58,257 nucleotides of DNA from a virus (Duplodnaviria > Caudoviricetes): positions 1 through 58,257 of IMG/VR virus record IMGVR_UViG_3300027971_002004; one strand, given 5' to 3'. The notes beneath the pieces were generated by a model, which saw only the letters and a program-made list of their open reading frames with translations, had not been told where the DNA came from and did no database searches. Position numbers and translations under genes: made by a program. Positions 2 through 53,995 of the stretch are shown in pieces (positions within the stretch are counted from its first letter, which is position 1; every line of letters begins with the position of its first letter).

Positions 2-640
2 GGGAATATATTTGTTCCCCCAGACATAGATATAAGGAGGACTATTAGGATCTGGTCTCCATGTCATGTCGAATCTAGTTTTATCAATTGGTTGAACTTC
101 TACCCATTTGTCTAGTTTGGGTAACAACTCTATTAATTCATTCATATATTTTATATGAATAGCGTCTTTTACATGATACTCTACGACCGAGCTAATTTCT
201 GGTGGGAATAATTTACAACCCCATTTGTATATATAAGGTGGATCAGTTGGATCTGGGTGCCATGAGAAATCAAATTTAGATTCATCAATTGAGTCAAGTA
301 TTATCCATGAATTTGATTTTTCATTGCGACGTTGTAGCGGATTTACGTCTGCACGATAAAGTGATAAGGGCAATTCATTGGTAGTATTACACAGCCAAGT
401 ACCTGAATCTTTTTGGTGTTGGCTAGGCCAAATGTTGATATGTTCTTCAGCCCATACATCTTCATCAGGTAAAAACTCAAAATCAAAATCCCAATCGAAT
501 TTTCGATAATCACAATATTCATTGATTATCCAAAAATGTTCTGTGGTGCACTGTTGTCTAGCGTCAGCTAAATTAAGTGCGTGTTTTTCTCTAGGGTGGG
601 CGTTTGGTTTATTACCGTAATAAAATACATCTCTTAGCAT
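2..640 (-). CDS. Repeat-containing, possibly glycosyltransferase-related protein, 3'-truncated by the window edge (not in ORF track)
   Basis: Manual translation from ATG at 640: MLRDVFYYGNKPNAHPREKHALNLADARQQCTTEHFWIINEYCDY..., open to the edge. Contains two copies, 67 aa apart, of IDxxxFDxxWxPDPxxPPYIYxWG. ATAAGTA box at 646-652. Confidence 0.8.
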   Translation of the reverse strand, partial: MLRDVFYYGNKPNAHPREKHALNLADARQQCTTEHFWIINEYCDYRKFDWDFDFEFLPDEDVWAEEHINIWPSQHQKDSGTWLCNTTNELPLSLYRADVNPLQRRNEKSNSWIILDSIDESKFDFSWHPDPTDPPYIYKWGCKLFPPEISSVVEYHVKDAIHIKYMNELIELLPKLDKWVEVQPIDKTRFDMTWRPDPNSPPYIYVWGNKYIP

Positions 641-678
641 AATTATACTTATGCAATAATAAGCATGTTATAAAGTTT

Positions 679-1374
679 TTATCTACCGTCAACTGTTCCC
701 ATAGGCACAGTAGTCCACATTACTATAGCTCTTTTAGTTGTTATACCATTATCAAAAAAGTAATCGCTAGTATGGAACTTTGCTCTGGAAGCGGCTGACA
801 AGTCACCCTTCTTCCACGGGAATATTTGTTCTATACTTAAATATGGCACCTCTTCGGTCATTACTACTTTTTTTAAATATTTGTTAAATGTTTCTTCACT
901 GATACTATTTAAAATTGGAGGATTTGTTTGTTCAATCCAATCAACAACCGTTTTAATATGTAATGCTTCCTGATCAAAAATAATAGTGTTTGAATTATAA
1001 TCGGCTAGTGGAATAATAAAAGTCCAAGCAGGTGTCATCCCCTCACCGGGTATTATTGTGTACTCTACGCCGGGTTCATTTGATGCATCAGTGTGTATAC
1101 TATACGGGTGAAAACTTTCTAAAATATGACAATCATCAATGAAAATGTCTTTGTGAAAGTGTTGTTGTAGTTTAGGCAAAAGTATTTCTTTTAGTCTAAC
1201 ATGGGTATCATTATAGATTCTGAAATCCCATATGTTTGCCATTTTAAATGTGCCCTTGACAGTTTCATTAATATCTACATTTAATGTTGTCATTCCCTTA
1301 GTATGCATATCTTCTATTTCTGTGATTTCGTCATCAGAGAGAAAGTTATGTATGGTTCTAGTATCAATTATCAT
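679..1374 (-). CDS. Putative 2OG-Fe(II) oxygenase superfamily protein
   Basis: N-terminal NFLSDDEI, HxD motif (SIHTD), FIIPL strand, WKKGD, distal His (FHTS) and a C-terminal KRAIV Arg, the typical DSBH layout. Confidence 0.65.
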   Translation of the reverse strand: MIIDTRTIHNFLSDDEITEIEDMHTKGMTTLNVDINETVKGTFKMANIWDFRIYNDTHVRLKEILLPKLQQHFHKDIFIDDCHILESFHPYSIHTDASNEPGVEYTIIPGEGMTPAWTFIIPLADYNSNTIIFDQEALHIKTVVDWIEQTNPPILNSISEETFNKYLKKVVMTEEVPYLSIEQIFPWKKGDLSAASRAKFHTSDYFFDNGITTKRAIVMWTTVPMGTVDGR

Positions 1375-3418
1375 TTATAACCTCTCCTATTTCCTCCCAT
1401 TTACCGGTACCTATATAATGATAGTTAAATGAGAAATCAACATCTTTGTATTGTTCAAGCATTCTTTCTATTTTTGCTTCTTTTTCGCTAGGTATTTGAG
1501 GAGTTTTAACGTGTTTAGCTATGCGTTCTGCAATAAAAGTATTACTTGATGTTTTTTCAAGATTTTTCCACTTTGATCTGCTCCAAGCATGTTGGGGTTG
1601 TTTATAATCTAATTCAAAGTCTGCACTCCAAGTACCATCTTCTTCTATACTAAAATTGTAAACAGCAGTAAAATCATAATCTACCGAACTTCCATATTCT
1701 GCAAAATCTTCATCTTTGTTATAATGAATTCTTATATCGTACTTTCCTAGTATGTGCCAAAATATTCTAAGAACAGGAAATATATCATTTATCAATGAAT
1801 CAGCAAATGCTCCTTTGCCTGTCTGAATAATATTAAAATTCATATTTTCTTCAAGTTCAAGATTTACTTTTCTTTCATTTATTTTATCATAATTTATTTT
1901 ATAAAAATTGCCAATTGTAGGTCGCAATGCGGCTATGTTAAAATCTAAGAAATCATGTCCTGACACTTGAATTTCTTTAGCCCAATGTACTAATATGTCT
2001 AATCCTTTTCGTTTAACTAATGAATGGACTTTAGTATTATTGTAGTTAGTACAAATACTATTACCCAAATAACAAACATCGATTAGATCGTATCTTTCAG
2101 TGTCTTGTGTAATAATGGCATTGGTATCAAACCAAAACATATTAACGCTTACACATGCCATTGTTCCTGAAGGTAACAAATTCCAATTCAATACTAATGT
2201 TTCATAATAATTATATGCTGATTCAGTAGGAAATCCTACAAACCATAAACCAGTATGACGCATTCCCACTGCACCACTATCTTCTACATTTGCTAACACA
2301 TCTGCCACAGTAATTTTTTTGTTAATGTCCTTTAGTACTTTATCTGAACCTGATTCAATACCTAGACCAAATCCATAGCATCCAGAATCTTTTAATGTTT
2401 GCAGATACTCTCTATCCATTCGTTTATCACATCTGGCTAAACCATTCCATATAACCTTTACATTATTATCAATAAGACCTTTAGCAAAAATTAATAATTG
2501 TTTAAGATCACCGTTGACTAAACTATCAACAAAGTTAAGTTCAGTTATCTTATATGTGTTATATAACTCTATAATCTCATCAAGTAAAGCAAGACCTGAT
2601 CTTTCTCTAAACTTCCAGTAGTGTGTTTCATTACAGAATACACATTTAGCAATACATCCTCTACTGATTTCAATATCGATACCTTTTGATCTATATAGAT
2701 CAAAATCATAATCTCTGTAATTAGATGCAGGCATATTATCAAGGCTGGCTCTGACTTCGCCCTTTTCAATTAATAATTTATGACCTAATCTAGGAACATT
2801 ATTTTCAACTTCATCTAGTATTTTTAATAAAAGACTTTCACCTTCACCTGCAACGGTATAATCATATGGCTTTGACAACAAATGATTTTCATTCCATATG
2901 TTAGCTATAATATTAACTCCACCGACTATTATAACAATCTCTGGTAATTCAGCCCTGATCTTGTTTACTAACCAGTCCATAGGAAGTTCGTTGCAATAAT
3001 ATTGTGTAAATCCTACTATAGTAGGACGTAATTTTTTAATACGTTCAAAACAATCTAAAAGATGTTTTTCTAAATGGGGATGTATATCTTGATGATAATT
3101 AGGATATATCCATTTCCAATCTCGATTAGTATGCCAAGGATCGTAATCTAGTCCCCAATTTACATGGTCGTTATGGGCAACAATATTCATATCAATGCTT
3201 GTAGTTTTATAACCGTTTGCTTCTGCTAATGCTGATAACCTAGCTAGATTATAAGGAGGACCTCTGATTGACCAAGAAGGGATTAAAACAAATACTATAC
3301 TTGTCTTTTTAGTAATTTCAATGGGTTGTGCTTCTATATTTGAAGGCACAATTTCATCAGTCCTCTTTACAGTGGACTCCATACTTGCAACTTTGTGTAA
3401 TAAATTATCTGACCACAT
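1364..3418 (-). CDS. Cobalamin-binding (class B) radical SAM enzyme
   Basis: N-terminal B12-binding-like region (PPYNLARLSA, IVGFT, IIVGG, GEGE), EISRGCIAKCVFC CxxxCxxC, GIESGSDKVL, FVGFPTE. Confidence 0.88.
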   Translation of the reverse strand: MWSDNLLHKVASMESTVKRTDEIVPSNIEAQPIEITKKTSIVFVLIPSWSIRGPPYNLARLSALAEANGYKTTSIDMNIVAHNDHVNWGLDYDPWHTNRDWKWIYPNYHQDIHPHLEKHLLDCFERIKKLRPTIVGFTQYYCNELPMDWLVNKIRAELPEIVIIVGGVNIIANIWNENHLLSKPYDYTVAGEGESLLLKILDEVENNVPRLGHKLLIEKGEVRASLDNMPASNYRDYDFDLYRSKGIDIEISRGCIAKCVFCNETHYWKFRERSGLALLDEIIELYNTYKITELNFVDSLVNGDLKQLLIFAKGLIDNNVKVIWNGLARCDKRMDREYLQTLKDSGCYGFGLGIESGSDKVLKDINKKITVADVLANVEDSGAVGMRHTGLWFVGFPTESAYNYYETLVLNWNLLPSGTMACVSVNMFWFDTNAIITQDTERYDLIDVCYLGNSICTNYNNTKVHSLVKRKGLDILVHWAKEIQVSGHDFLDFNIAALRPTIGNFYKINYDKINERKVNLELEENMNFNIIQTGKGAFADSLINDIFPVLRIFWHILGKYDIRIHYNKDEDFAEYGSSVDYDFTAVYNFSIEEDGTWSADFELDYKQPQHAWSRSKWKNLEKTSSNTFIAERIAKHVKTPQIPSEKEAKIERMLEQYKDVDFSFNYHYIGTGKWEEIGEVINDN

Positions 3419-3421
3419 ATA

Positions 3422-4516
3422 TTAAAAAGGTTTATAAATTTTAGGGTAATTAGTTACTTCTGGCATATTTAATACTTCAAGTAATCTAGCGTATCTTGGA
3501 GAAGTCTCAAGCCAAACTGCTTTGTCTCGGAATAGAAAGTCAGGCATATGATCTCCTTGTAATATCGGGTGTATGTGAATCATCGGTAAATTATCCGGGT
3601 ACTTATATGCTAACCTAATTAATTCCGGAATAGATTCAAAATTATCTTCTTGTAATACTACAATCCAGGCCCAATCTACAGTATTGTCAGGGTGCTTTAA
3701 TCTAGATTCATATAGATAATCTAAGTTTTTCCACAATGTAGCCCAATGACCACCAAGCCTAACCTTATCATAGCTTTCTTCATTTCCTGCATCAATACTA
3801 ATCTTAACAATTTTTGTTTGAGTAAACAAAGTCGCATGTTTGTTTTGCATTTTCTCAGTCATTAATACGCCATTGGTTAATAGAGTATATCTTAGATTAG
3901 GCCATAGTTCTGGATTTGTAAAACACTTTCTAGTTTCAAATTCATGTCTATATATACTACTACTGAAAATGTCACCAATACCATCTATTTCTAAATCTAC
4001 TCGGTGATCATGAGGTTGTTCAAATAAAGAATCAAGTACTGATCCTATAATTTTTGCGGCTTTTTCACGTTGTTCACCCAAGAATGTTACCTTTTCTACT
4101 CTACATGACGGGCAATATAAATTACAAGTACCGTCTACTGATAGATTGATTTCAGTAGGTAATGCGTTAATTGTAGTATTGAATGTTTCTTTTAAGGGAA
4201 ATTTTTCAGCATGATGAATAAAATGGCATACTTTTTTGTCGCAATATTTGTAAGAACTATCAAGTATAGATTGTCTAATTAAGTTAGCCTTCTTGCCTGA
4301 CCAAATTTCTTGAACACTTTCTGTTAATACATTTCCGATTACCGCAGGTAACCATTGGGGACAACATATTATTACATCACCGTTCTGAAGAACCATAATC
4401 TTACGAAAAGGTTCGGGGCATACCCTACCCGTCAAAGAGGGCAATTTACTTACATCATTTTCATCAAAGTCTTGGTAATATAAATCACCAAATACCGGGT
4501 CAGATAGTTTTTTCAT
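3422..4516 (-). CDS. Radical SAM enzyme with N-terminal SPASM/twitch domain
   Basis: CPEPF...NGDVIICC...IGNV...EIWSG...C..C, then CNLYCPSC, LLTNG, ISIDAG, YDKVR. Confidence 0.87.
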   Translation of the reverse strand: MKKLSDPVFGDLYYQDFDENDVSKLPSLTGRVCPEPFRKIMVLQNGDVIICCPQWLPAVIGNVLTESVQEIWSGKKANLIRQSILDSSYKYCDKKVCHFIHHAEKFPLKETFNTTINALPTEINLSVDGTCNLYCPSCRVEKVTFLGEQREKAAKIIGSVLDSLFEQPHDHRVDLEIDGIGDIFSSSIYRHEFETRKCFTNPELWPNLRYTLLTNGVLMTEKMQNKHATLFTQTKIVKISIDAGNEESYDKVRLGGHWATLWKNLDYLYESRLKHPDNTVDWAWIVVLQEDNFESIPELIRLAYKYPDNLPMIHIHPILQGDHMPDFLFRDKAVWLETSPRYARLLEVLNMPEVTNYPKIYKPF

Positions 4517-5859
4517 ATATCTTTATTTATCTTTGCAAACGACGGGGTACCTGCAGCCGGATGCCATGACAACTCTGGAAAAGTTTTAAGAAAATTAGTA
4601 CCACGTGCCTCATCTAATTTGTTGAACCATTCACTTGATGAATCATGATTAATAATCACTGGCTCATCAATTGCTTTATGAAATCTCTCTATATTATCAT
4701 GTAATGTTGTTATTGCAGATTCCCTAACACTAACATTCTTTAACGGAACCATTACATCAACATACCATTCTTGAAATTCACGCAAGCTAGTATGTAGGAA
4801 TTCTTTCCATTCAGGCGTAGCACATGATATCGATAAATGTTCAGGGTGCATCAAAATTATATTATGAAAATCACATTCCCATTCAGATGAATCATAAAAG
4901 GTACTTGATAACAGTTTTTGCTCAGTTATAAATTCTACCATTTCTTTCATACGATGTGTGTTCATAATACTCCATGTAGGAGTCAATGTCCATTTTTGTC
5001 GTTCACCGGTTAACGCATTATTTAACCTATGTAGATTTTTTACTATTGTATCTAATTCTAACGGATAGCGAGAATAGTGAAGTCTGTCTCTATCTACTTC
5101 ATCCATACTTACTAAAATCTTTAATTTTTTAATACGAGCCCAATACTCCAACACATCAATATCTTTATATTTTAAAGAAGTTAAATTAGTACTGTAGCAA
5201 AAATGAGTACCATCATCAAATTTTCCGGCTTCATCCATTGCTTTTAATATAGCAAAATGTTCTGGTTGAATTAATGGTTCACCTCCAGCTAAGTATACGT
5301 CATCTGCATATTTGGCTTGAGATTTAATAGTATTAATAAACTTTTCCTTGTTGATTGAACTTGTGTTAAATTTTTCTGTCGTGGCGTTTAGTGGCCACAT
5401 CTTGTTAACAACATCTACCCAAGCACTGCTATATTTTGTACTACAAGGTGTACATGCTAGATTACATAAATTACTAAATCTAAAATCCCATCTGTAAATT
5501 TTCATTTCTTTCATGGAACCATCTTCTTCAGTACCTTCTTCAACCAATTCTTCGTATTTTTTTCCATACAAGTTATTGTAGAAATTTCTTATAGTATTTG
5601 TATTGCCCCATTCTTCTTCCTTAAGGCATCTATCACAATTCTTAGCGGGTATTTCATTTAGCATATTTTTTCTAAATGTTTTGTAATTATCATTATTCCA
5701 TATTACTTCAATTTCATCTTCATACAGATTACCCATTGGTTTTCCAATTGCCGCAATACAACATGGTTGTATATCGCCGTTTGGCATATTATGAACATGC
5801 ACCCAAGGTGCCATGCAAAATACTTTACTCTCTTTTAATCTAAATTCTTTGTTTGACAT
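4513..5859 (-). CDS. Radical SAM enzyme with N-terminal SPASM/twitch domain
   Basis: FCMAPW...NGDIQPCC...GNL...IWN...CDRC, then CNLACTPC, AGGEPL, YSTN. Confidence 0.88.
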   Translation of the reverse strand: MSNKEFRLKESKVFCMAPWVHVHNMPNGDIQPCCIAAIGKPMGNLYEDEIEVIWNNDNYKTFRKNMLNEIPAKNCDRCLKEEEWGNTNTIRNFYNNLYGKKYEELVEEGTEEDGSMKEMKIYRWDFRFSNLCNLACTPCSTKYSSAWVDVVNKMWPLNATTEKFNTSSINKEKFINTIKSQAKYADDVYLAGGEPLIQPEHFAILKAMDEAGKFDDGTHFCYSTNLTSLKYKDIDVLEYWARIKKLKILVSMDEVDRDRLHYSRYPLELDTIVKNLHRLNNALTGERQKWTLTPTWSIMNTHRMKEMVEFITEQKLLSSTFYDSSEWECDFHNIILMHPEHLSISCATPEWKEFLHTSLREFQEWYVDVMVPLKNVSVRESAITTLHDNIERFHKAIDEPVIINHDSSSEWFNKLDEARGTNFLKTFPELSWHPAAGTPSFAKINKDI

Positions 5860-5887
5860 ATATTAATATTTCTCGGTTGTATTTATT

Positions 5888-6586
5888 TTATAACCATAAT
5901 GGAGTTTTAATGATCCTACCCTGATCATTTACACGTGGCATATGAAATTTTGTCAGAGTCCACGGTCTATAATCTAATGTACCTACAGTCTTTTTTATTA
6001 AGCGAACACATTTGCCATGAAATGTAATCTCTATTTCTTTGTCTATAGCAAAATCAACAAATGCTCTGTAAATATGACAATGAGTAATATCATCACCAAA
6101 TATAAAGCCTCCTTCTGGCAAAAGATCCCAACAATAATTTAAATTATCTATTGTATCATCGTACATATGATTTGTATCTAGTAATATTCCAGATATAGGT
6201 TTTATACGTAAACTTTTACAATCTCCGGTATACAAAACAATATTACTAAAATCTTCTACTTGTAACTGTTGTACTGTTAGTAGATCGTTAACACTTAATT
6301 CAGGAAAATCAATACGATCTCTGAGGTCTACCATCATTGGATTATCCTCTGAAAAGGCAGTTGCAAAGTCATTTAAATCTATAGTATGTATACACATATT
6401 AGGTAATGCTTTGGCAAACATTACGGCTGTTCCTCCAATTAAGGTACCCAATTCTAGTATGTGTGATCCCGGGGGTAGTGTCGATAAACTCTCAATCATC
6501 CATTGTACATCCCAGGGCGGAATTGCTGAAAATGGCGTATCTAACAATTTTTGTTTTATATAACTTCTCTGCTCATCCGTTAGCAT
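5888..6586 (-). CDS. Class I SAM-dependent methyltransferase (Methyltransf_24-like)
   Basis: ILELGTLIGGT motif I, HTID, LLDTNH.YD, LPEGGFIFGDD. Start moved to ATG 6586 (MLTDEQ) to avoid a 130-nt overlap. Confidence 0.82.
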   Translation of the reverse strand: MLTDEQRSYIKQKLLDTPFSAIPPWDVQWMIESLSTLPPGSHILELGTLIGGTAVMFAKALPNMCIHTIDLNDFATAFSEDNPMMVDLRDRIDFPELSVNDLLTVQQLQVEDFSNIVLYTGDCKSLRIKPISGILLDTNHMYDDTIDNLNYCWDLLPEGGFIFGDDITHCHIYRAFVDFAIDKEIEITFHGKCVRLIKKTVGTLDYRPWTLTKFHMPRVNDQGRIIKTPLWL

Positions 6587-8888
6587 ATATAGGTATTTCT
6601 TTTTTCTTTTTATAATGTATTGATTCTTTAGTTTGTATTGAATCAGTTTTCCAATCAGATACATTTCCTTGTTTCTCAAAAACTTCAGTAAAGCTTTGGT
6701 CAAGTTTAGCTCGTTCTAATGCATAATGTTCTTTATTAATTTCTTCTAAAGTATCATGGTCAAACGTATGACTAACAGATATGTTATAATCTCCGTTAAC
6801 ATCTATTGACATTTTTACTTTAGCAGTATATATACACGTAATTAGTCCACCAAATGTTTCAAAGTCAGTTATTGGATCACATGTAAATTCAAAATCATAC
6901 TTACCATAATAAATGTACAATGCATACGCAAACGCAAAATATTCATTGATGACAGTCTTACTTAGTGTAGTATCACCACACTGATTAAAATCTACATGTG
7001 AATCATATTCTAAATATTCTGTTTTTGGATCATTGTGTACATTAAATGTGTAGAAATCTTTTATTACATTATATCTCTGTGAATTTATAGCAACACTATC
7101 AGAATGGTCTTTAATTATTTCTAACCAAATATGAAATAATTTTAATCTGACAAAACGATGTATTAATGTGTTTTTATAATCAGTGGTATACCATTGTTTT
7201 AAGAATACATTATCCCATGGTCTTTCAGTCCATTGAATACCATACTTTTGCCAAGCAGTGTCCAAATCACTCTTGTGACTAGGACTAGCTCCAAAGCCCG
7301 GACTAATAGCAGTAACCCATTTCCTACAATTATATATTAATTGAAGGCTATGAAATGCATCAATAGGTTCTTCAGTTGGGAAACCTACCATCCAATTAGC
7401 ATGATTAAACATACCTATCTTTTTACCATTTCTGAAGTTATCTTCTATTTCCCAAACTTTAATTTTCTTCTTCATGTCGTCAAGTACTTTTTGACTACCG
7501 CTTTCTACTCCAAAGCTTAAAGCTGAACAACCGCTATCAGATATTTTTTTGAATACTTCTTCAGTCATTCTACCGTCACATCGGGCGTAACTATTCCAAC
7601 GAATTTTCCACGGCTTTTCTATTAGTAAATCAAGTAATGTAACAAAGTTCTTTATATCACCGTTAGCAAGACTATCGACAAACCAAAAATGTTTAATTCC
7701 ATACTCTTGAACTTGATGTTCGATTTCCTCAACTACTCGCTCAGGAGTAGTGCTTCTAAATTTCCAAAAATGTGTCTCTGTGCAAAAACTACATTTTGCA
7801 ACACATCCCCTGGATGTTTCAATACTAGCACCGGACATCAAATAATTAGATAATACATAATCGCTATAATCAGGGTAAGCATATACATCCAAGTCTAGTC
7901 TGCTATCAACTGATCCTACTATTTGATTCAATGGGTATTCTTTTGGAAGAGTCTCTAATGTATATAAAAGTGTTTCTTCTGCTTCACCTACAAAGATATA
8001 GTTGAATATATTTTTTGCATCACTATCAAACCAATATGATCCTGTAATTGTTTCAGGGCCTCCCACAATAAAACAAATATCGGGTACTAATTCTTTGAGA
8101 TATTTGACTAATACCATTGTAGCGAAATAATTTGTTATGTATAAACTAAAGCCAACAACTTTGACTCTTGAAAATGCAATTTCTTCAGCTATACGATACA
8201 ATATCGGCTTTAGATCAGGTAAAATATATTTGTCAAAGTTGTCTTTATCTTGCCATAGAAAATAGCGTTCTGATTTCCAATAATCTTCGCCATGTTCTTT
8301 TAAGAAATAGTGATAAGCTTCAATATTAATATCATAGGATTTGACACTATACCCATTTTTTCTAAGTGTCCCTGTTAATTTAGAGAGGTTATAAGGAGGA
8401 AATAGTATTCCCCATGAAGGAGCCATCACCATTGCAATTCTAAATTTATCTGTCTTTGCCCACGGCGTGTCTGAGTATACTTGTATGAATTCATTTACCC
8501 CATTTACTTCAGGACCGTTTTCTTTTAATAAATGTTTTGAAACAATTTGATCTCTATCACCATATACTTGTTTTTTAGCTTCTTCTTCCAGGTCAGATAC
8601 TTCACTGAGCATAAGGTGAATCTGTTTACGTTTATTTCTTAAATCTATTAATTCAGGTCCACTTAGTTCTGGAAATCTACTAAAGGCAATTTGTATATAT
8701 TCATCAGGACAGTTTGGATTCAATACAGCGGCTCTGGCTACAGACGAATCAACTTCATCCGCACAGAATGCTCTGAGTAACCATAATGGACAGGTCTTTT
8801 CAGTTGCTAAGATTGACCTATCATTGGGGTGAAGTGCTAAGACTAATCTGTCTTTATATTGTTGATCCAATTCAGGTGAGTAGTTCAT
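6573..8888 (-). CDS. Cobalamin-binding (class B) radical SAM enzyme with N-terminal LRV-like helical repeats
   Basis: PPYNLSKL, VVGFS, IVGGPE, GEAE; ETSRGCVAKCSFC; GVESGSQKVL; MVGFPTE. Likely start ATG 8888 (MNYSPE), 2 nt after the upstream stop. Confidence 0.88.
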   Translation of the reverse strand: MNYSPELDQQYKDRLVLALHPNDRSILATEKTCPLWLLRAFCADEVDSSVARAAVLNPNCPDEYIQIAFSRFPELSGPELIDLRNKRKQIHLMLSEVSDLEEEAKKQVYGDRDQIVSKHLLKENGPEVNGVNEFIQVYSDTPWAKTDKFRIAMVMAPSWGILFPPYNLSKLTGTLRKNGYSVKSYDINIEAYHYFLKEHGEDYWKSERYFLWQDKDNFDKYILPDLKPILYRIAEEIAFSRVKVVGFSLYITNYFATMVLVKYLKELVPDICFIVGGPETITGSYWFDSDAKNIFNYIFVGEAEETLLYTLETLPKEYPLNQIVGSVDSRLDLDVYAYPDYSDYVLSNYLMSGASIETSRGCVAKCSFCTETHFWKFRSTTPERVVEEIEHQVQEYGIKHFWFVDSLANGDIKNFVTLLDLLIEKPWKIRWNSYARCDGRMTEEVFKKISDSGCSALSFGVESGSQKVLDDMKKKIKVWEIEDNFRNGKKIGMFNHANWMVGFPTEEPIDAFHSLQLIYNCRKWVTAISPGFGASPSHKSDLDTAWQKYGIQWTERPWDNVFLKQWYTTDYKNTLIHRFVRLKLFHIWLEIIKDHSDSVAINSQRYNVIKDFYTFNVHNDPKTEYLEYDSHVDFNQCGDTTLSKTVINEYFAFAYALYIYYGKYDFEFTCDPITDFETFGGLITCIYTAKVKMSIDVNGDYNISVSHTFDHDTLEEINKEHYALERAKLDQSFTEVFEKQGNVSDWKTDSIQTKESIHYKKKKEIPIYANG

Positions 8889-8890
8889 TT

Positions 8891-10189
8891 TTATTTTCTC
8901 GTATAATTTAATGCTTCGGCTAGCCAAGGAACGGTATCAGCAAGGTCTTGATTTCTATAATTATCGGTCCATTTGATTATCTCTATTGCTCTAGGTAAAA
9001 GCTGTGATGAATCTTTTTCATTCATATAGTCAATTATACTATAAATGTGTTCTTTAATAAAGGGAACATTAGATTTAGCAACGTATTCATCATACAGTGC
9101 GGTTATCTCTTTTTTTGTTGTTTGTGGTAATATTTGAACATTTAGCCAGTCTGGGCCTACTAATCTATGCCACATTAATTTATGATGGAAACGTTTAAAG
9201 TTAGCAGTATTGTGATACCATTCTATCATTTCAATAAAATGCTTTATATTAAAAATATTAACGGTTACATTTGTAGTACAGTAGAGTTGCGGGATATCCG
9301 CATTATCTAATTCATACATATGTTGCTTAATCACTTCCCATTTAGAAGGATATCTTATATAATTAGCCATATCGTCCATGCCATCAATACTAAAACAGAC
9401 AATAACTGATTGGAAATGTTTCCATTGATTTAATAAATTCTTATTCAATGTAGTACCATTGGTATTGTATTCTAATGTAATGTTTTTTGCAAAATCATTT
9501 TCGATACAGTAATCTAAAATTTCATAGTGTTTTTTATTGATTAGAGGTTCTCCGCCAGTAAAGTAGATTCTATTCAATGAGGGTAAAATTTGCTTGATAT
9601 CATCATTGAATTTTGGAGTATCGTAGTACTGGAAATCATCACCCTTAATTTTGTATGTGTTGGCTACCTTTTCAATTTCGTAAGGTGTATTTATTTTACC
9701 AAACTTAAATTCAGTAGTGCCACGCTCATACGTTTCTTCAATCCACAATGAACTATCGCCCGGGCCGCACATGCGACAAACAAGATTACATAAATTACCC
9801 AAACGAGAATCTAAATATTCGATAGGAAATTCAGTAGTATCTATTTTACCGCTAGCATCTGGTTGTTCTAATATTTTATTCAATGTGTCTTTATAGGCGT
9901 GCTGTTGTTGTTGACGTTTAGATACTAATCCAAGATCCTCTTCATCCCAGCAGAGTTTACACAAATCACTTTTCTCACCATTCAACATACTGCGGCGCAA
10001 TTCAACAATTGTAGGATGATTTCTCACTTCATTAAAATTATCCGTTAGTGCGCTAACTGCTTTCCCGTCAGTAAGCATTCGTCCACCAGAGGTATATATA
10101 CACTGGCAACAAATTCCATAATCTCCATTTTGGTAAGTTGCTTGATGATTCCATGGAATCGTACAAATTGTATTCTTTTTTTCACTCAT
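8891..10189 (-). CDS. Radical SAM enzyme with N-terminal SPASM/twitch domain
   Basis: ICTIPW...NGDYGICC...CKLCW; CNLVCRMC; FTGGEPL; YNTNGT; FSIDG; YIRYP. Confidence 0.88.
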   Translation of the reverse strand: MSEKKNTICTIPWNHQATYQNGDYGICCQCIYTSGGRMLTDGKAVSALTDNFNEVRNHPTIVELRRSMLNGEKSDLCKLCWDEEDLGLVSKRQQQQHAYKDTLNKILEQPDASGKIDTTEFPIEYLDSRLGNLCNLVCRMCGPGDSSLWIEETYERGTTEFKFGKINTPYEIEKVANTYKIKGDDFQYYDTPKFNDDIKQILPSLNRIYFTGGEPLINKKHYEILDYCIENDFAKNITLEYNTNGTTLNKNLLNQWKHFQSVIVCFSIDGMDDMANYIRYPSKWEVIKQHMYELDNADIPQLYCTTNVTVNIFNIKHFIEMIEWYHNTANFKRFHHKLMWHRLVGPDWLNVQILPQTTKKEITALYDEYVAKSNVPFIKEHIYSIIDYMNEKDSSQLLPRAIEIIKWTDNYRNQDLADTVPWLAEALNYTRK

Positions 10190-11555
10190 ATGTTTTACAC
10201 TTCATATAAAAATCTATCATTTCAGGGAATGCGTTAAAAAAGTCTAACGATCTTCTTTCTGATAATTGGTCAATGTTTTTACTAAAATCTGAAAGTAAAT
10301 TAACATCAGAATTAGTTCCGATGCTATTCTTTAGCTCATATAACTGGGTGATATACTCTTCCCATGTTCCAAATAAATAACCATCAGGTCTATCTTCTTC
10401 ATTTTTTAATATTTCTATAGCATCATCTACGTATGACCTATAGCTAGGTGGTAATATAGTTGTACTTAACCAGTTAGGATATACCACAGTGCCTCCACGT
10501 AGATTTATTGGGATACCATACTTGCGTTGAATACTAATAACCCAGTTAAAGAAATTAGGTAAATCAGAAACGCACAATGCATTCAAAGCCAACATTAAAT
10601 TTATTGAGACACATTTTTTATTTTCCATCTTACTTATTAATGATAGCATTTGATCGATATTAGAAGTAAATCTTTCCCATTTTGTGCCAGTTCGTATAAA
10701 CTCAGTTCTCTCACCCACTGATTCAAGACTGATATTCAAGTCTAATACTAAATCAGTATTAGCAATTCTAGGAATTAAGTCCATAAATTTATTAAAATAT
10801 TGTTCAGGCGTATTAAAGTTAGTAACAACTGACAAATATACAGGTCTATTAACTTTTACTTCACTAAATTTAATTAAAATTAAATCAATGTATTCATATA
10901 ATTTACTTATGATTAATGGTTCTCCACCAATGAATCCAATAATTGTTGTTGTGTTGGCTACTCTATCATAAAACCATTCCCACCAAGCTTTTTCTAAATT
11001 AGAATTTGCAATCGGGTCAACATCTTTACTAAAGTTTATAGGTATTTCTTTATATTTAATTTTTTCAGTAATCCATTGAGTACTAAAAAATTCATTACAA
11101 TACACACACTTTAAGTCACATGTATTACCTAATGCTATCTCAACGTTATTTACAAAATCTATATTTGTTGCCAAATCATCTTTTTGTTCATCAGTTAGAT
11201 TCATCAACATGTTTTTTATTTCTGGAGCCTTTTTACCCTTATAGTGATTAGCGTGTTCAACATATTCCGCAAATCTATTAAATCCATGACCATGTCTTGA
11301 ACTCTTTAATCCGTTGTTTTCTAACTTCCAACAATAAGAACAATTATCTGTTTGAATGCCATTTAACAAATCTAGTTTAGCTTGTCGAATAGGTTCAAAT
11401 TTTGTAAAAATATCTTTACCTAATCTAGTAATATCCTCATTTGAAATTTTATGATGTTTTGAATGACAGCACATGCTAATTTCATTATTAGCCAAATTAA
11501 CAATAGGATAGTCCCATGCTTTTTTACATAGAGTATTGACGATATTATTTTGCAT
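10182..11555 (-). CDS. Radical SAM enzyme with N-terminal SPASM/twitch domain
   Basis: LCKKAW...MCCH...CSYCW; CDLKCVYC; IGGEPL; VTN; EFIRTG. Start may be 11555 or 11567. Confidence 0.87.
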   Translation of the reverse strand: MQNNIVNTLCKKAWDYPIVNLANNEISMCCHSKHHKISNEDITRLGKDIFTKFEPIRQAKLDLLNGIQTDNCSYCWKLENNGLKSSRHGHGFNRFAEYVEHANHYKGKKAPEIKNMLMNLTDEQKDDLATNIDFVNNVEIALGNTCDLKCVYCNEFFSTQWITEKIKYKEIPINFSKDVDPIANSNLEKAWWEWFYDRVANTTTIIGFIGGEPLIISKLYEYIDLILIKFSEVKVNRPVYLSVVTNFNTPEQYFNKFMDLIPRIANTDLVLDLNISLESVGERTEFIRTGTKWERFTSNIDQMLSLISKMENKKCVSINLMLALNALCVSDLPNFFNWVISIQRKYGIPINLRGGTVVYPNWLSTTILPPSYRSYVDDAIEILKNEEDRPDGYLFGTWEEYITQLYELKNSIGTNSDVNLLSDFSKNIDQLSERRSLDFFNAFPEMIDFYMKCKTYE

Positions 11556-12597
11556 TTCTATCACCAAACAATGTGAAATCTTTCTTAGTATAACCTTTTA
11601 AAAATATTCCGTCCTTTGATGGGCCTAATAATACATCATAGTTGTTATCCTTAATAGGAACAATTGCCCATGTACAATAATCAACAAAATTAGGTATTTC
11701 TTTAAGCTTGTTCTCAACTTCTAAAGTATATTCGGTTGTGTTTGGCTTCATCATAATTTTAACTTCAAGATGGCCTGTTTTACCCTTACCTTCTCTCTCA
11801 ACTTTAGTTTCAACTATTCCTTTAACAACTTCTAGGAATTTTTCCTGATTCCATCCTTCATAATGAACACTTAAATTAAGATCTCCGTAAGTAATAAGTT
11901 CTTGATAATAATCAGGTTTTCTGCTACCGTTACTATGCATACTGAGATTATATCCCAATACATTTATGTAACGACACCAATCTAAGAACGCCGCATTAGC
12001 AGTTGGTTCTCCGCCTGTAATAATAAAATTACAACTACTATCTCCGATGAATTCGTCTTTTATTTTATCAGTGGCTGTCATTAATTCTTCTAAACCTTTA
12101 TGAGCTTCATAGTTATTGTGAATGTGAGGCCAGCAATAAGAACAATCATAGTTACACCTACGACCTATTTCCCAATGTACTTGTTTGAAACTAGTACCGT
12201 ATATTCGTTCCATAGCTACAATATTATCTATAGAATCAACTTTCTTTGACATATCTGTTTCAAGTTCTTGTTTTTTTCTAAGTAACGGAATATACTCTAA
12301 CGTTTTAACTTTGGGTATGAATAAGTCTGCTCCACAACTACAAATACTTTTATAGCATTTAGGCCATTCTTTGGGTGTTTCAAATTTAGAAAACACATTT
12401 CCAAGTGAGCCACCTTGTTCACAGGATGCTCCAAATATTTCTCCGTCAGAATTAATGAATAAATTTTCAACCCCCATACTGCAGGCCCATCCATTCAGAT
12501 AATTTAATTGTTGTCCTATAAAATCATCTGTTCCAAAATCTTTCCAATTACCCGCGGCATCATATGCTCGTAGTGGTTTTCCAGGAGTTGTGTCCAT
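11545..12597 (-). CDS. Radical SAM enzyme, SPASM/twitch-like domain N-terminal
   Basis: GWACSMG...DGEIFGASC...LGNV...CYKSICSCGAD, then CNYDCSYC, TGGEPT, HSNGSR. Confidence 0.87.
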   Translation of the reverse strand: MDTTPGKPLRAYDAAGNWKDFGTDDFIGQQLNYLNGWACSMGVENLFINSDGEIFGASCEQGGSLGNVFSKFETPKEWPKCYKSICSCGADLFIPKVKTLEYIPLLRKKQELETDMSKKVDSIDNIVAMERIYGTSFKQVHWEIGRRCNYDCSYCWPHIHNNYEAHKGLEELMTATDKIKDEFIGDSSCNFIITGGEPTANAAFLDWCRYINVLGYNLSMHSNGSRKPDYYQELITYGDLNLSVHYEGWNQEKFLEVVKGIVETKVEREGKGKTGHLEVKIMMKPNTTEYTLEVENKLKEIPNFVDYCTWAIVPIKDNNYDVLLGPSKDGIFLKGYTKKDFTLFGDRNAK

Positions 12598-13547
12598 TAA
12601 ATTACCTTCTCTTTCGTACTCATTATATCAAAATTACAATGGCACATAGTTTTATTACAAATAGTTGGTGCTATAGGTACTTCAAAATCTTCAAAAATAT
12701 TACCAATCTTTCCGCCTACTCTGCACCAGCCTCTAAACACGTCTCCTGATAAGTCTACAATAATTTGTTCAACACCTACATAACATTTCCATCCTGACCA
12801 ATCGTTTGTTTTTTCACTTAAAAATCTATGTGAACTGGATGTTATCTCTGTGTTATCTTCTGCAACCATTTTCATAGCACCACGATAATAATCAAAAGAC
12901 TTGTCGTATTTTATATGTTTAACAATTAATTCATGCTGTTTATCAAATATATTTTGTTGGGACTCTGTATATTCATACATTACTTCTCCAAAATCATAAA
13001 TCAATGGTTGCAATGCCATAGAAATATTTGTAATATTTTTTATTTTATTAGCTACTGCGTAACAAAAAGAAAACTTATCAGGACTCATCATAATATTTAC
13101 ATGAGTACGAACATCGTTATGTAACAATTTAACAACTTCTACAAAGTGATCTGCTTCAGCAAATTCAGGGTGAAAGCTCAAACATACGTGGTCGAAATAT
13201 TTCTTGTTATCTTCCCACCACCGTAACGTTCTACTACCATTACTGATTAATCCAACTTTGGCTCCCAATTCAGTGCAATGTTTGCATATCTCTACAAAAT
13301 GTTTGTATAGTGTAACTTCACCGCCGGTTAACTCAAAATAAACTTTACGCGGAGCAACTTGTTCTACCACACGTGTAATAAAGTCTTTAACTTTTTCTAG
13401 TTCAGGCCATTTCACACTACCTGAGTGAAGATTTTCTGGGCAATAACTACATTCAAAGTTACAAGTATTGCCCATACACCAATTAACTACAAACCAATCT
13501 TCATGGCTCGGAGTATTATGTACTAACTTAATATAATTATGTTCCAT
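12597..13547 (-). CDS. Radical SAM enzyme, SPASM/twitch-like domain C-terminal
   Basis: CNFECSYC, TGGEVT, ISNGSR, then GWKCYVG...GDVFRGWC...IGNI...CNKTMCHCNFD. Start at 13547 gives a TAATG overlap with the upstream stop. Confidence 0.87.
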   Translation of the reverse strand: MEHNYIKLVHNTPSHEDWFVVNWCMGNTCNFECSYCPENLHSGSVKWPELEKVKDFITRVVEQVAPRKVYFELTGGEVTLYKHFVEICKHCTELGAKVGLISNGSRTLRWWEDNKKYFDHVCLSFHPEFAEADHFVEVVKLLHNDVRTHVNIMMSPDKFSFCYAVANKIKNITNISMALQPLIYDFGEVMYEYTESQQNIFDKQHELIVKHIKYDKSFDYYRGAMKMVAEDNTEITSSSHRFLSEKTNDWSGWKCYVGVEQIIVDLSGDVFRGWCRVGGKIGNIFEDFEVPIAPTICNKTMCHCNFDIMSTKEKVI

Positions 13548-14500
13548 TACCATCCTTCTATTTTTCTAATAACATCCATCTCTTTAACTAACGGACCGAT
13601 ATTGTATTTATCGGCTAAGTAATGTCGCTTGAAGAACAGGCTTTGTTCTGCGTTATGTATACACATCGGTAAGCCTAGCTTATCATGTAATGCCTCACCT
13701 AATAAGTTTGCTTCAACTTCAGGATCTCTATGTAAATGTTCTTCCCACAATACAGTATAGTTATCAAACCATTGTACATTATGCGGGTCCCATTGTGTTA
13801 ACATAGTCATGTATGTGCCTAATCGTGCACCATAAATAGCCCACAATCCATTCTCTACGTCACTACCAATGTTATGCCAAACAGTTAGATTGTTTAAGTT
13901 ACGTGTAGCAACAGTTTCTTTAAATTCATCAATCGTGGGTCTTGCACCACGATTTAAACTCATCTTTACACCCTCACGGAAGCCAGCTCGCCATGCTTGA
14001 AATGGTGTATGATTAGGATAAGTTGTACTGTAACAATCATACATAGCCCAGTATAAATTATCTTTGCTATCTAAACAGAAATCAGCAATACGTGTTTCAT
14101 CTCCGTCAGTTTGATTCTCATGTGTTTTCATATTCATCACATAAGTTTTTGTCCAACTGCTCATCCCACCATTGCCATAACGTAATCCATTAATACTATT
14201 AGTAGCTTTCCAACGATATTGCGCTAGTTTGTATGTAGGATCTTTATCAGTAAAATCTAATTGCATGTTGAAAAACGTTTCATCAGGCATGTTATCACCG
14301 TCAATTAAAATAAAACGCTCAGTATCGCTTGCAATTGCGGCCGCTTTGTGTGCCGCATCACTTCCCTTAACGTTGTCAACACGTTTAGCCCAAGGCACCA
14401 TGTTCTTAATCTTAAGCCAGAATTCTTCTTTCTGTGGTTCATCATAGCTAAGATAGATACAATCTAAATCTGCTACATCAATGATATCATTGGAGTTCAT
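13547..14500 (-). CDS. Putative GT-A fold glycosyltransferase-like protein
   Basis: DCIYLSYDEP, VKGSDAAHKAAA, RFILIDGD (DxD), YGNGG, QAWRAGFREGVKM. Confidence 0.6.
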   Translation of the reverse strand: MNSNDIIDVADLDCIYLSYDEPQKEEFWLKIKNMVPWAKRVDNVKGSDAAHKAAAIASDTERFILIDGDNMPDETFFNMQLDFTDKDPTYKLAQYRWKATNSINGLRYGNGGMSSWTKTYVMNMKTHENQTDGDETRIADFCLDSKDNLYWAMYDCYSTTYPNHTPFQAWRAGFREGVKMSLNRGARPTIDEFKETVATRNLNNLTVWHNIGSDVENGLWAIYGARLGTYMTMLTQWDPHNVQWFDNYTVLWEEHLHRDPEVEANLLGEALHDKLGLPMCIHNAEQSLFFKRHYLADKYNIGPLVKEMDVIRKIEGW

Positions 14501-14846
14501 ATATCTTTAATTTCCATTTAGTTGTTTTACCGTCATATGAGCTATCAGCTATGATACTAATATCATCTGCTATACATTCTACCCCTTCATCCATATTAGG
14601 CATTAATTTATATACCACTGATTTGGGACTAGCAGTTGAGATCCTGCCATCAATAACTCTTATGTCCGGTCTTGCGGCTGCAAAAGTTAGAGCATCAATT
14701 ACAATGTAATTACCGGTCATTGATTTGTCACCGGTATAACATATTACGCTACCATTACTATCATAGTATAATCTGAACTCAGGTGGTTCCATTTTAGGTT
14801 GTTCCCATATAACTACATATTCCTGTTGATTATCTTCTGTACTCAT
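14487..14846 (-). CDS. Hypothetical protein
   Basis: 119-aa ORF overlapping both neighbours; no recognisable motif. Confidence 0.75.
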   Translation of the reverse strand: MSTEDNQQEYVVIWEQPKMEPPEFRLYYDSNGSVICYTGDKSMTGNYIVIDALTFAAARPDIRVIDGRISTASPKSVVYKLMPNMDEGVECIADDISIIADSSYDGKTTKWKLKIYELQ

Positions 14847-15598
14847 TTTATACTCTCTAATATTTTATCACTAAAATTCTTTATATGATAGTGAAAAGGG
14901 TATCTTTGCGGAATAGTTTGAATTCTAATATGATCTGGTAAACACTCATACACAAATGTGTCAGTCCAATTTTCAGTTGGTGTTTCATTAATATATTGTT
15001 TCATATGTACCATTGTCATATCAGTAAACGTTGGCATCATTGTGGTTTCAACTCCCATAATATGACAAGCAATAGCATATGCCCAATCAGTTGTGGCTAA
15101 TTCTTGTGCATTACATTTTAATGAGGCTTTATAATGATCCCACTTCTCGAACACATCTCTTACTATAGCAAAAAATTGTTTAGCAGTATCAGACTTTTTA
15201 AAATAAGTAATTGCATTGTATGCGTCGGGTAAATTATTATCATCTATAAATCTGCGATACACTCTATTATCTGATATATCTTGTTTGTAATTTCTAATAG
15301 CACTTGATACTACCAAGTCTCTGTGTGATAAAACGTCCCACCAATAGTCAATATTTTTTGGAATATACATATCTGATTCTAGTTTGATTGTATATTCATA
15401 TGGGCTAGCATCATATACTTGCCAATCATTTTGTAACTTCCAATTGGTATTAGGTGATTGATCACCATGCGGCAACATAGCGGTAGTTACTATAGTTATG
15501 TTAGCATCGGGCATTACTCTTTTAATACTCTTTTCCAATGCAGAAGCACATTTAACGTAGTCATCACCTTGCGCCATAATCACAAAACCTTTATTCAT
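14843..15598 (-). CDS. Putative glycosyltransferase (GT-A, GT8-like)
   Basis: KGFVIMA...DYVKCA...SIK, ASPYEYTIKLESDM (degenerate DxD), TDWAYAIA. Paralogue of 15595-16395. Confidence 0.65.
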   Translation of the reverse strand: MNKGFVIMAQGDDYVKCASALEKSIKRVMPDANITIVTTAMLPHGDQSPNTNWKLQNDWQVYDASPYEYTIKLESDMYIPKNIDYWWDVLSHRDLVVSSAIRNYKQDISDNRVYRRFIDDNNLPDAYNAITYFKKSDTAKQFFAIVRDVFEKWDHYKASLKCNAQELATTDWAYAIACHIMGVETTMMPTFTDMTMVHMKQYINETPTENWTDTFVYECLPDHIRIQTIPQRYPFHYHIKNFSDKILESIK

Positions 15599-16395
15599 AC
15601 TAACTCCATAAAGTTTTCTTTATTCATAACGTGAAAATCTATATCTTTGGCAATAATATATTCTTTACGAATTTTACCTCGTTGCCAATTATCAAACACT
15701 ACAGTATATTCATTATTAAACATATCATCATCATTTTTATAAACCATAGTATTCTTTCCAATGTGAACTAAATTCCATGGAATTAAATCTTCTACGGTAA
15801 AAGTATTACCATTACTAATACGTGTTGCAAGAGTTATAGCATAATCATTGCGATAAGGAGATGGAACGAATCCATGTAAATTCGCATAATGTTCATAATT
15901 ACGCTGAACCATACCCATTGAGTTAAATATTTGTTCTGCTCGTTTAGTTTTATTAAATCTAATCACAGTAGCCCATAATGTTTTAAAACCATATGGATTT
16001 AACATCTCTATCTGTGGTGTATTGTACATTAAGAAATGTGTATCTTCATGGCAACAAAAATCAGTGGGCAACTCAAACGTCTTTAACAGTTTGGTTGAAT
16101 TAACTAAGTAATCGGTGTCTATTAATAATGTTTCATCATACGGGCTTAATTCAAATGCCCGATATCTACCTTTATTAATCCATGTTCCGCGATCTCGTTT
16201 GTTACTTGTATCCGCAGTAGCCAATATCGTGTTGTCAAATACATAATCAATATTTTCAGGTATAGAAGTAGTATCCGTTATAATTGATACAGGTAAGTCC
16301 AAAAAGTGATTAATACGTTTAGCTGTTGCTACAGCCATGTCATAGTAATTGAATTTGGAAGAATTAAACGCAAATAGTATTACACCTTTGCTCAT
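15595..16395 (-). CDS. Putative glycosyltransferase (GT-A, GT8-like)
   Basis: KGVILFA, KGRYRAFELSPYDETLLIDTDYL (DxD), RNDYAITLA. Confidence 0.7.
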   Translation of the reverse strand: MSKGVILFAFNSSKFNYYDMAVATAKRINHFLDLPVSIITDTTSIPENIDYVFDNTILATADTSNKRDRGTWINKGRYRAFELSPYDETLLIDTDYLVNSTKLLKTFELPTDFCCHEDTHFLMYNTPQIEMLNPYGFKTLWATVIRFNKTKRAEQIFNSMGMVQRNYEHYANLHGFVPSPYRNDYAITLATRISNGNTFTVEDLIPWNLVHIGKNTMVYKNDDDMFNNEYTVVFDNWQRGKIRKEYIIAKDIDFHVMNKENFMELV

Positions 16396-16697
16396 CGTTT
16401 TTTCTCTAGTTCAACCCACTCAGTGTACCATTCTTCCATGATTGATTTATAAACTGTATTAAGTTTAGACAACAATGATTGTCGGTTTATTTTAACTGGG
16501 TTATTAAAATTATCTATTAGAACAATCTCATCTTCATTAGAAGAAGTAAGAAAGTTGATTGTTGCTAGATTGGCACTCCACAAGCCATTTTGGTCAGCTA
16601 CGATAAGTTTACTTTCGTATTTGTCTTTTAAATATGCTTTAGCAGAATTATGATTGAAGCGGGCCTTGGCTTCGGTAATTAAAGTCTTTGTATCCAT
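16392..16697 (-). CDS. Hypothetical protein (possibly tail-fibre assembly related)
   Basis: 101-aa ORF with GGAG RBS and CTAAATA box upstream, directly after fibre-like genes. Function suggested from position only. Confidence 0.7.
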   Translation of the reverse strand: MDTKTLITEAKARFNHNSAKAYLKDKYESKLIVADQNGLWSANLATINFLTSSNEDEIVLIDNFNNPVKINRQSLLSKLNTVYKSIMEEWYTEWVELEKKR

Positions 16698-16744
16698 GTA
16701 ATCTCCTAAGAGTATTTAGATAGATACAAAGACCTATAAAAAAA

Positions 16745-50827: not shown

Positions 50828-50834
50828 TTTAACC

Positions 50835-50860
50835 AAAGCCGTTGCTAATGTAACGGCTTT
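50835..50860 (+). terminator. Stem-loop after gp55, overlapping a sigma70 -35 element
   Basis: AAAGCCGTTGC-TAAT-GTAACGGCTTT, 11-bp stem with one G-T pair and a short T tail. Confidence 0.5.
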
Positions 50861-50870
50861 ATTATATAAT
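50842..50870 (+). promoter_or_regulatory. Sigma70-type promoter for a probably leaderless gp47 mRNA
   Basis: TTGCTA-17 nt-TATAAT; ATG at 50877 follows after 6 nt with no SD sequence. Confidence 0.7.
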
Positions 50871-50876
50871 AAACGA

Positions 50877-53962: not shown

Positions 53963-53995
53963 TTTTATACACAGAAACACACGATAAGTAGTAGT

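Follow-up and report, generated by a model that had tools for sequence, protein, structure and literature searches.

What does a phage build with three glycosyltransferase (GT)-like genes and eight radical S-adenosylmethionine (SAM) enzymes encoded in one run behind its virion-protein genes? The question is raised by the virus record IMGVR_UViG_3300027971_002004, whose complete sequence of 58,257 nucleotides (nt), a 58-kb fragment, is the window analysed here. Besides these genes, the block between positions 16697 and 2 contains one methyltransferase and one likely 2-oxoglutarate (2OG) oxygenase, and it is an operon behind genes for homologues of virion proteins. In our view the system is real, conserved and as yet uncharacterised, a variant of virus-encoded glycosylation that includes radical tailoring. 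A glycan is quite probably the substrate of the block, and we lean, at slightly better than even odds, towards a model in which the operon runs late, builds a sugar chain on a tail or baseplate protein and has that chain edited by the radical SAM enzymes, the methyltransferase and the oxygenase.

All 16 open reading frames (ORFs) of the block lie on the minus strand, as do all features given below unless stated otherwise. With ATG starts assumed, 14 of the 15 intergenic gaps measure −14 to +38 nt; an overlap of −92 nt becomes −14 when the methyltransferase start is set at 6586. The co-oriented, near-gapless run described in the initial annotation of this sequence is thus borne out. Freshwater metagenomes were the best-matching sequencing runs for the window, and contigs from a lake run of an independent study cover positions 611–9526 and 9504–13748 at about 95% identity. 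Because these contigs span the array, the gene order is real and the array is no assembly artefact. The window also encodes T4-like baseplate genes (Pfam and PHROG searches), and large cultured myophages, among them Atu_ph07, CBB and RaK2, have baseplate wedges with 30–40% identity to that of the window. Relatives, searched as whole genomes, measured 259–525 kb.

The GT-like genes stand at the head of the operon. On the basis of a predicted model with a predicted local distance difference test (pLDDT) score of 94.6, we are confident that GT251 (14843..15598) adopts a GT-A/GT8-like fold. Foldseek matched the model to glycogenin (E 1.8e-7), and the nearest solved structures, with VIA Z scores of 13.4–12.6, were glycogenin, UGGT, Skp1 GalT, GlyE, LARGE1 and LgtC (best match: Z 13.4, root-mean-square deviation 3.9, 191 aligned); comparison with the PBCV-1 capsid GT A64R (A064R domain 1) gave Z 11.7 at 10% identity. 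The GT251 family comprises 943 clusters at 50% identity. GT251 carries an HMK motif and an invariant E74-x-D76 in place of the DxD motif, which is invariant in GT266 (D93-x-D95) and GT317 (D67-G-D69). GT266 (15595..16395) is assigned as a GT-A glycosyltransferase by its homology to GT251 (hhalign, 98.2%). GT317 (13547..14500) is nucleotide-diphospho-sugar transferase-like and likely GT-A; its model (pLDDT 74.5) reached best Z scores of 7.3–7.5, tied between IspD-type nucleotidyltransferases and GT-A enzymes, and the Atlas lead was PF00535 at 0.87, with its settings in bacteria and in fusion proteins (below) as further evidence. The three proteins had no match in Pfam, NCBIfam or PDB sequence and profile searches, and PHROGs gave one unknown family only. 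None of 44 GT251 members matched any GT Pfam at E 1 or better, no GT appeared among the PDB profile matches, and GT251 did not qualify as GT8 proper by Pfam and CAZy. All three have a maximum 19-residue hydropathy below 1.0, in keeping with soluble GTs. The three GT-A-like genes named in the initial annotation therefore hold for GT251 by fold and for GT266 by homology, with GT317 placed weakly.

This head of the operon is conserved across related phages. Using GT251, we found 69 viral loci at 54–92% identity, many of them near-copies (48 distinct GT317 sequences). In 69 of 69 loci, a gene of the family that encodes a 316-amino-acid (aa) virion protein lies upstream of the GT pair, and the 53 loci that reach 2 kb beyond GT317 all have a radical SAM gene within two ORFs of it. 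The array behind the core differs between loci in gene number and subfamily, so that the fixed GT core with a variable radical SAM set, predicted beforehand, was indeed seen. Array genes in relatives include an NDP-sugar epimerase, UDP-glucose dehydrogenase, carbamoyltransferase, FkbM methylase, sugar-isomerase cupin, NTP transferase and DUF6071. Two small conserved genes, left out of the initial annotation, count among the core: one for 101 aa (16392..16697; 65 of 70 loci, with a homologue in the Ralstonia phage RsoM2USA and no convincing Pfam family) and one for 119 aa (14487..14846; 66 of 70 loci, with no family match in Pfam, PHROGs or NCBIfam). A role of the 101-aa protein as a fibre chaperone of the DUF4376 type was rejected, as 0 of 37 members match DUF4376.

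The core also reaches well beyond these near relatives. GT251 occupies one tail-linked site in each of the five phages searched as genomes, and three distant phage-like contigs (L071, L073 and L075) retain the core; their tail blocks with the GT core stand on contigs binned into bacterial metagenome-assembled genomes of unrelated taxa, and the contigs are probably mis-binned phage DNA. A tblastn search with the three GTs as queries covered 50,697 cultured phage records and returned RsoM2USA only. Its gene order is a virion-like protein, a small protein, two GTs, a small protein, GT317, an N-twitch enzyme, a second GT317-like gene and a likely methyltransferase, and the core lies near tail tube- and sheath-type genes and an epimerase.

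The genes upstream of the operon resemble genes for virion proteins. The gene for a 5,937-aa virion protein (19765..37578) belongs to a family found in 63 of 70 loci, and its product is 27% identical over 1,417 aa to a protein of phage PA5oct annotated as seen by ESI-MS/MS (tandem mass spectrometry with electrospray ionization). A fibre-like virion protein of 411 aa (17705..18940; PHROG virion structural, E 5e-10; Peptidase_G2, E 1.5e-5) is homologous to PA5oct gp358 and gp359, both annotated as ESI-MS/MS-detected, and the 316-aa virion protein (16745..17695), a candidate acceptor, is homologous to gp360, which was positive in ESI-MS/MS and is not followed by a GT cassette. PA5oct has homologues of four upstream genes in all, every one annotated as virion-detected, and the cassette is not present behind them. 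The position 'after tail-fibre genes' given in the initial annotation is right, and the term 'tail fibre' goes too far insofar as the evidence is homology to virion proteins.

A TAAATA box, a likely late promoter, stands at the operon head (16713..16718). TAA[AG]TA occurs 7–50 nt upstream of first-gene homologues in 42 of 48 distinct regions, compared with 3.6% of background windows; for the remaining homologues, the box sits nearer the start codon in the upstream regions listed. Six structural genes of the window are preceded by the same box, and the window encodes a gp55-like late sigma factor (49922–50827), so that both features of a T4-type late unit, the conserved box and the sigma factor, are present. 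It is likely, judging from T4 and from the distribution of the box, that these boxes are late promoters. All three previously noted late-type boxes (16713–18, 5880–85 and 646–51) are there. The TAAATA box within the array (5880..5885) lies in a 28-nt gap and is no family trait (16 of 125 genes of the family carry such a box); a TAAGTA box (646..651) stands directly upstream of the repeat gene described below, three homologues of which have TAA[AG]TA within about 6 nt of the start. Scans for sigma70 promoters and terminators gave counts at or below chance level, and an Rfam search gave no match. On the plus strand, 49922–54562 holds the sigma factor gene together with an SbcD/SbcC-like nuclease pair and a resolvase, ordinary T4-like core genes.

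The eight radical SAM proteins all carry CxxxCxxC and all match PF04055, six of them above cut-off, which bears out the number and motif first assigned to them; none reached a specific NCBIfam equivalog. Three pass the cut-off of the N-twitch family NF033640 (170 bits), with the other five below it: a 457-aa enzyme (10182..11555; 217.5 bits), a 432-aa enzyme (8891..10189; 347.8 bits), whose best matches among the proteins retrieved are bacterial, and a 448-aa enzyme (4513..5859; 292.9 bits). In comparison with the twitch enzymes BtrN and NeoN, the twitch part of the 448-aa protein resembles BtrN weakly (E 0.027), and the domain order is reversed relative to BtrN. A 364-aa enzyme (3422..4516; PF04055, E 7e-5), below the NF033640 cut-off, has an N-terminal SPASM/twitch domain (PF13186, E 2e-9). 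The 318-aa enzyme (12597..13553; PF04055, E 1e-11), for which an 86% identical relative was found, and its 350-aa neighbour (11545..12597) are 30% identical over 165 aa. Each bears a five-Cys cluster with spacing 20, 22, 5 and 2, C-terminal in the former (Cys 257, 277, 299, 304 and 306) and N-terminal in the latter (Cys 39, 59, 81, 86 and 88), an arrangement that, from the sequences, looks like a circular permutation.

Two B12-binding radical SAM enzymes complete the set, one of 771 aa (6573..8888; PF04055, E 1e-17; PF02310, E 1.8e-7, 31.4 bits against a cut-off of 32.1) and one of 684 aa (1364..3418; PF04055, E 2e-14; PF02310, E 4e-4, under cut-off). They are paralogues, 33% identical, and in both the B12-binding domain precedes the radical SAM domain. 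This is the order of class B cobalamin-dependent radical SAM methylases, but here no named NCBIfam family is reached and the family is large and uncharacterised: the 771-aa enzyme has 860 homologue clusters and a long C-terminal region, and PF02310 is found in nearly all of the 120 homologues listed. The division into six SPASM/twitch and two B12 enzymes made in the initial annotation therefore stands for three N-twitch enzymes, one SPASM enzyme and, at scores below cut-off, the B12 pair, and the remaining two carry the five-Cys clusters instead. In a quick tree of 71 selected sequences, which has long branches, four of the window enzymes fell into four separate deep clades, partly interleaved with bacterial proteins, suggesting that these four did not arise by recent tandem duplication. 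A scan of viral contigs with the 771-aa enzyme found one distant locus, where the gene stands alone without the GT core.

The array also contains a class I methyltransferase (5888..6586, with 6586 as its likely start), as first proposed; it passes the Methyltransf_24 cut-off (E 3.5e-7) and weakly matches an O-methyltransferase in the PDB (E 9e-4). A 231-aa protein (679..1374) is a likely 2OG-Fe(II) oxygenase, an assignment based on an H94-x-D96...H201 motif and, for the predicted model, an Atlas structure match (template modelling (TM) score 0.62 to a cluster that is 62% PF13640); Pfam gave no match. The last ORF (2..640) is cut by the window end and encodes the N-terminal 213 aa of a long protein, which are 70–71% identical to proteins of 1,447 and 1,645 aa. 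These long relatives have 10–13 tandem units of about 66 aa, rich in Trp, Tyr and Pro, and a C-terminal GT317-like domain. What had been called a repeat protein does have repeats; it is not a complete gene, and belongs to a repeat-plus-transferase protein of about 1,500 aa. With E values from 1e-9 to 1e-2, the repeat unit (window 2–640; L085 10873–15216; L086 1168–6105) matches segments of the protein's own C-terminal part, the GT317-like domain among them, and by this resemblance it may derive from amplification of a GT fragment. In place of the DGD of GT317, the terminal domain has FAKL or FAKLK.

Given these components, on what does the block act? A glycan is the likely substrate because of the GT fold, the sugar-pathway genes that neighbour the core in relatives, the setting of bacterial homologues in glycan loci and the existence of fusion proteins. 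Among 151 Bdellovibrionota genomes, 31 contain a protein above the NF033640 cut-off, and GT317 turned up in 5 genomes, each one of those 31 (P 2.8e-4, or 1.4e-3 without the seed genome, with kinship ignored). The surroundings of GT317 are rich in GT2, GT4, PMT_2, NDP-sugar, ABC-2 or carbamoyltransferase genes in four of the five genomes; the fifth (G005) has a GT pair with only an epimerase-like gene nearby. Long GT317 fusions end, in 115 of the best 120 (270 found), in a domain like the methyltransferase-like protein of RsoM2USA, and two GT317-like domains occur in all 49 long GT317 proteins with a domain layout listed, many of them near-copies. Of 18 long N-twitch matches, three are joined to a B12 enzyme and one carries GNT-I-like, sulfotransferase, TPR and methyltransferase domains in the same polypeptide. 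Bdellovibrionota chromosomes hold up to at least 11 N-twitch genes. In one genome (G102), GT317, a second GT317-like gene, a methyltransferase and a radical SAM gene stand side by side, matching RsoM2USA in all four gene types.

In the model that we propose, the operon would be transcribed late and, in the cytoplasm, a tail or baseplate protein of the newly made particle would receive a short glycan. The GT266/GT251 pair, which in this analysis was found only in phages, would prime and extend this glycan on an acceptor, most plausibly the 316-aa or the 411-aa protein, and GT317 and the GT317-like domain of the repeat protein would attach further sugars. By analogy with the chemistry of twitch enzymes of the BtrN/NeoN type, the N-twitch enzymes might oxidise, epimerise or dehydrate sugars; C-methylation would fall to the B12 enzymes and O-methylation to the class I enzyme. 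Editing could take place either on NDP-sugars or on the finished chain, and swapping of arrays would diversify the surface between phage lineages. More tentatively, and short of an even chance, a widespread clade of large tailed phages may put a radical-edited (C-methylated, epimerised or oxidised) glycan on its own tail or baseplate proteins by means of a phage-specific GT8-like priming pair and swappable arrays shared with Bdellovibrionota.

Several observations weigh against this proposal. The fold of GT317 does not separate a GT from a nucleotidyltransferase. The B12 enzymes are accessory, present in 4 of 69 flanks and in 2 of 5 genomes; L073 has the core without a radical SAM gene behind it; and N-twitch genes are likewise present well away from the tail block, singly in the relative G001 and linked to a carbamoyltransferase in RsoM2USA. 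The late box is without experimental support in PA5oct, because sigma70-like promoters alone are described there, as far as the available text of that study goes (PMC7318152). Virion glycosylation does not require late timing in any case, because the capsid GTs of PBCV-1 are expressed early according to the excerpted review (PMC9614988). The consulted portion of the RsoM2USA study mentions neither glycosylation nor a mass shift of virion bands, which were apparently not sought (PMC8504454). The Ser plus Thr fraction of the candidate acceptors (0.23–0.27) is similar to that of the PA5oct homologues without a cassette (0.19–0.24), and the 316-aa family is depleted in N-x-S/T sequons (229 observed and 401 expected, counted on related sequences and hence given without a statistical test), a depletion not seen in the PA5oct homologue. 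The initial annotation had taken S/T/N-rich fibres as an argument for a virion coat; the argument fails because PA5oct homologues lacking the cassette show similar Ser/Thr content, and we rejected both Ser/Thr richness and sequon counts as markers of an acceptor.

The enzymes could instead work from the cytoplasmic side on a host surface glycan (O-antigen, capsule or pilin glycan), blocking superinfection or grazing. Bacterial homologues in cell-surface glycan loci fit such host-surface editing equally, and two bacterial GT317/N-twitch loci adjoin prepilin-type genes. Soluble GTs can act on lipid-linked O-units, and GT-rich regions adjacent to fibres in pelagimyophages and cyanophages are read in this way in the parts of the literature at hand (PMC7029224, PMC12801897, PMC7824862); the latent period of 270 min given for RsoM2USA in its partly accessible description (PMC8504454) also suits it. 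But a hydrophobic segment as strong as those of membrane proteins is present in just 1 of 522 cassette proteins, and no membrane enzyme, flippase or lipid-carrier GT was found among them. The GT251 family was not found in the 151 Bdellovibrionota genomes, including those with GT317, by the same search that was positive in five of five phages, and the core, bearing the box of structural genes, is tied to virion genes in uncultured phages and a Ralstonia phage alike. We consider host-surface editing unlikely. The virion is the best candidate target because the cassette is nearly without membrane segments and the GT pair, seen only in phages here, is locked to virion genes; that the virion is indeed the target, as position and promoter suggest, we hold to be about an even bet. 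A somewhat less probable arrangement than host-surface editing is that the GT core glycosylates a virion protein while much of the radical SAM array is uncoupled from it and serves a small molecule, a modified nucleotide or protein side chains. The occurrence of N-twitch genes elsewhere in genomes, and of the core without them, would fit this, as would the internal box at 5880, the viperins that are the best PDB matches of the 318-aa enzyme (E ~1e-4), and the lipid, ribosomally synthesized and post-translationally modified peptide (RiPP) and phosphonate methylases that give the B12 enzymes their best NCBIfam scores. Those scores are all far below cut-off, however, and a radical SAM gene follows GT317 in every locus that reaches far enough, with co-occurrence in bacteria and fusions to GT, sulfotransferase and methyltransferase domains besides.

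Hypermodification of phage DNA, with glycosylated and further edited bases, is very improbable. Phage GTs are known to glycosylate DNA, as stated in the sources seen in part, and in a record of 58 kb nucleotide genes beyond its ends are uncheckable. DNA is disfavoured as the target because RsoM2USA has a separate T4-type DNA-glucosylation locus, more than 200 kb from the core, with a T4-type beta-glucosyltransferase, a second thymidylate-synthase-fold gene, a kinase, a deaminase and an amidinotransferase-like gene (2–8.4 kb; L089). Four uncultured relatives, three of them rated 100% complete, have one ordinary thymidylate synthase each and no T4 beta-glucosyltransferase, and the block itself lies within the structural module. 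The TGT family PF01702 was found in 0 of 5 relatives and in 14 of 14 controls, although a divergent DpdA could escape this search; QueE matches in the window were far below cut-off, so that no queuosine or 7-deazaguanine pathway was recognised there. Searches for TET and for 5-hydroxymethyluracil kinase were silent everywhere, controls included, and are uninformative. The preference for a virion coat over DNA modification, voiced in the initial annotation, agrees with the relatives, in which DNA modification and queuosine-type pathways are disfavoured. We give equally little credence to glycogenin-like self-priming, in which a free or scaffold-bound polysaccharide would grow on the Trp/Tyr/Pro-rich repeat protein, whose release or packaging would provide a decoy or adhesive. 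Among solved structures, GT251 matches glycogenin best, and the repeat units resemble a segment of their own GT domain, which lacks DGD; yet glycogenin is tied with five other GT-A enzymes, and next to the core, RsoM2USA and L073 lack repeats and have a second GT317-like gene that is short.

Further gene clusters were seen in the relatives. RsoM2USA carries a second tailoring module at 123–129 kb (L087), far from the tail block, with a carbamoyltransferase, three DUF6071 genes and an N-twitch enzyme. Genes for iron–sulfur (Fe–S) A-type carriers, a possible source of clusters, number three in G001 and two in G002, and none were found in G003, G004 or RsoM2USA. An Asp/Glu racemase, a dicarboxylate/amino-acid symporter and a solute-binding protein adjoin the island in G001 (L085 1386–4760), and fatty-acid desaturase, radical SAM, C–N hydrolase and diphthamide-synthase-like genes cluster among fibre-like genes in G002 (L088 952–6103).

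How does virion glycosylation by this locus, as we propose it, relate to known systems? Glycosylation of mycobacteriophage virions was reportedly described by Freeman et al. in 2023. As cited in the available passages of later articles (PMC11256854, PMC12619734, PMC12582341), phage-encoded GTs glycosylate capsid and tail-tube proteins in mycobacteriophages, which resembles our proposal of phage GTs acting on virion proteins; the window GTs, in contrast, matched only RsoM2USA among the cultured phage records, and no radical SAM tailoring figures in those parts of the mycobacteriophage accounts. Virus-encoded soluble GTs also glycosylate the capsid of PBCV-1 (A064R and A061L), where A064R builds and methylates the glycan with a GT–GT–methyltransferase layout, the same as that of the GT317 fusions, to go by the excerpts of the review (PMC9614988). 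PBCV-1 differs in being a eukaryotic virus with a major capsid acceptor and early genes, and the word 'radical' does not occur in those excerpts; in the window, moreover, GTs and methyltransferase come from separate genes, and the latter enzyme is not related to the methyltransferase fused to GT317. The closest arrangement is the host recognition cluster of pelagimyophages and cyanomyophages, with GT and radical SAM cassettes beside tail fibres (PMC7029224), together with a T4-like phage genome holding 12 radical SAM genes (PMC5332604). According to the portions of these studies that were available, they share with the window a variable region by the tail fibres, several GTs, radical SAM cassettes and many radical SAM genes per T4-like phage, and the arrangement is read there as host lipopolysaccharide (LPS) modification or Fe–S metabolism, without biochemistry. 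Unlike those phages, which were likened by descriptions and not by protein families, the present locus has a fixed virion-linked core, a conserved box and resolved B12 enzymes. A literature search, with most subscription journals outside its scope, turned up neither a virion glycan modified by radical chemistry nor a characterised pathway of this type, nor any characterised NF033640 member. The earlier statement that no characterised phage pathway resembles this one thus agrees with our search, whereas the arrangement as such had not gone unnoticed, GT and radical SAM genes beside pelagimyophage fibres having been published (PMC7029224, in the part available).

Virion glycosylation in tailed phages has been reported for mycobacteriophages, and the locus described here suggests that large phages with other hosts have a second system of great diversity. 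If our reading is true, radical chemistry would yield unusual sugars, NF033640 would gain a function, and the published view of fibre-adjacent GT islands as modifiers of host LPS would be challenged. RsoM2USA offers a cultured phage with a minimal version of the system, and PA5oct the same virion genes without the cassette behind them. As a compact operon of soluble enzymes, the block gives an entry to assays for an uncharacterised N-twitch family and a large B12-dependent family of 860 clusters.

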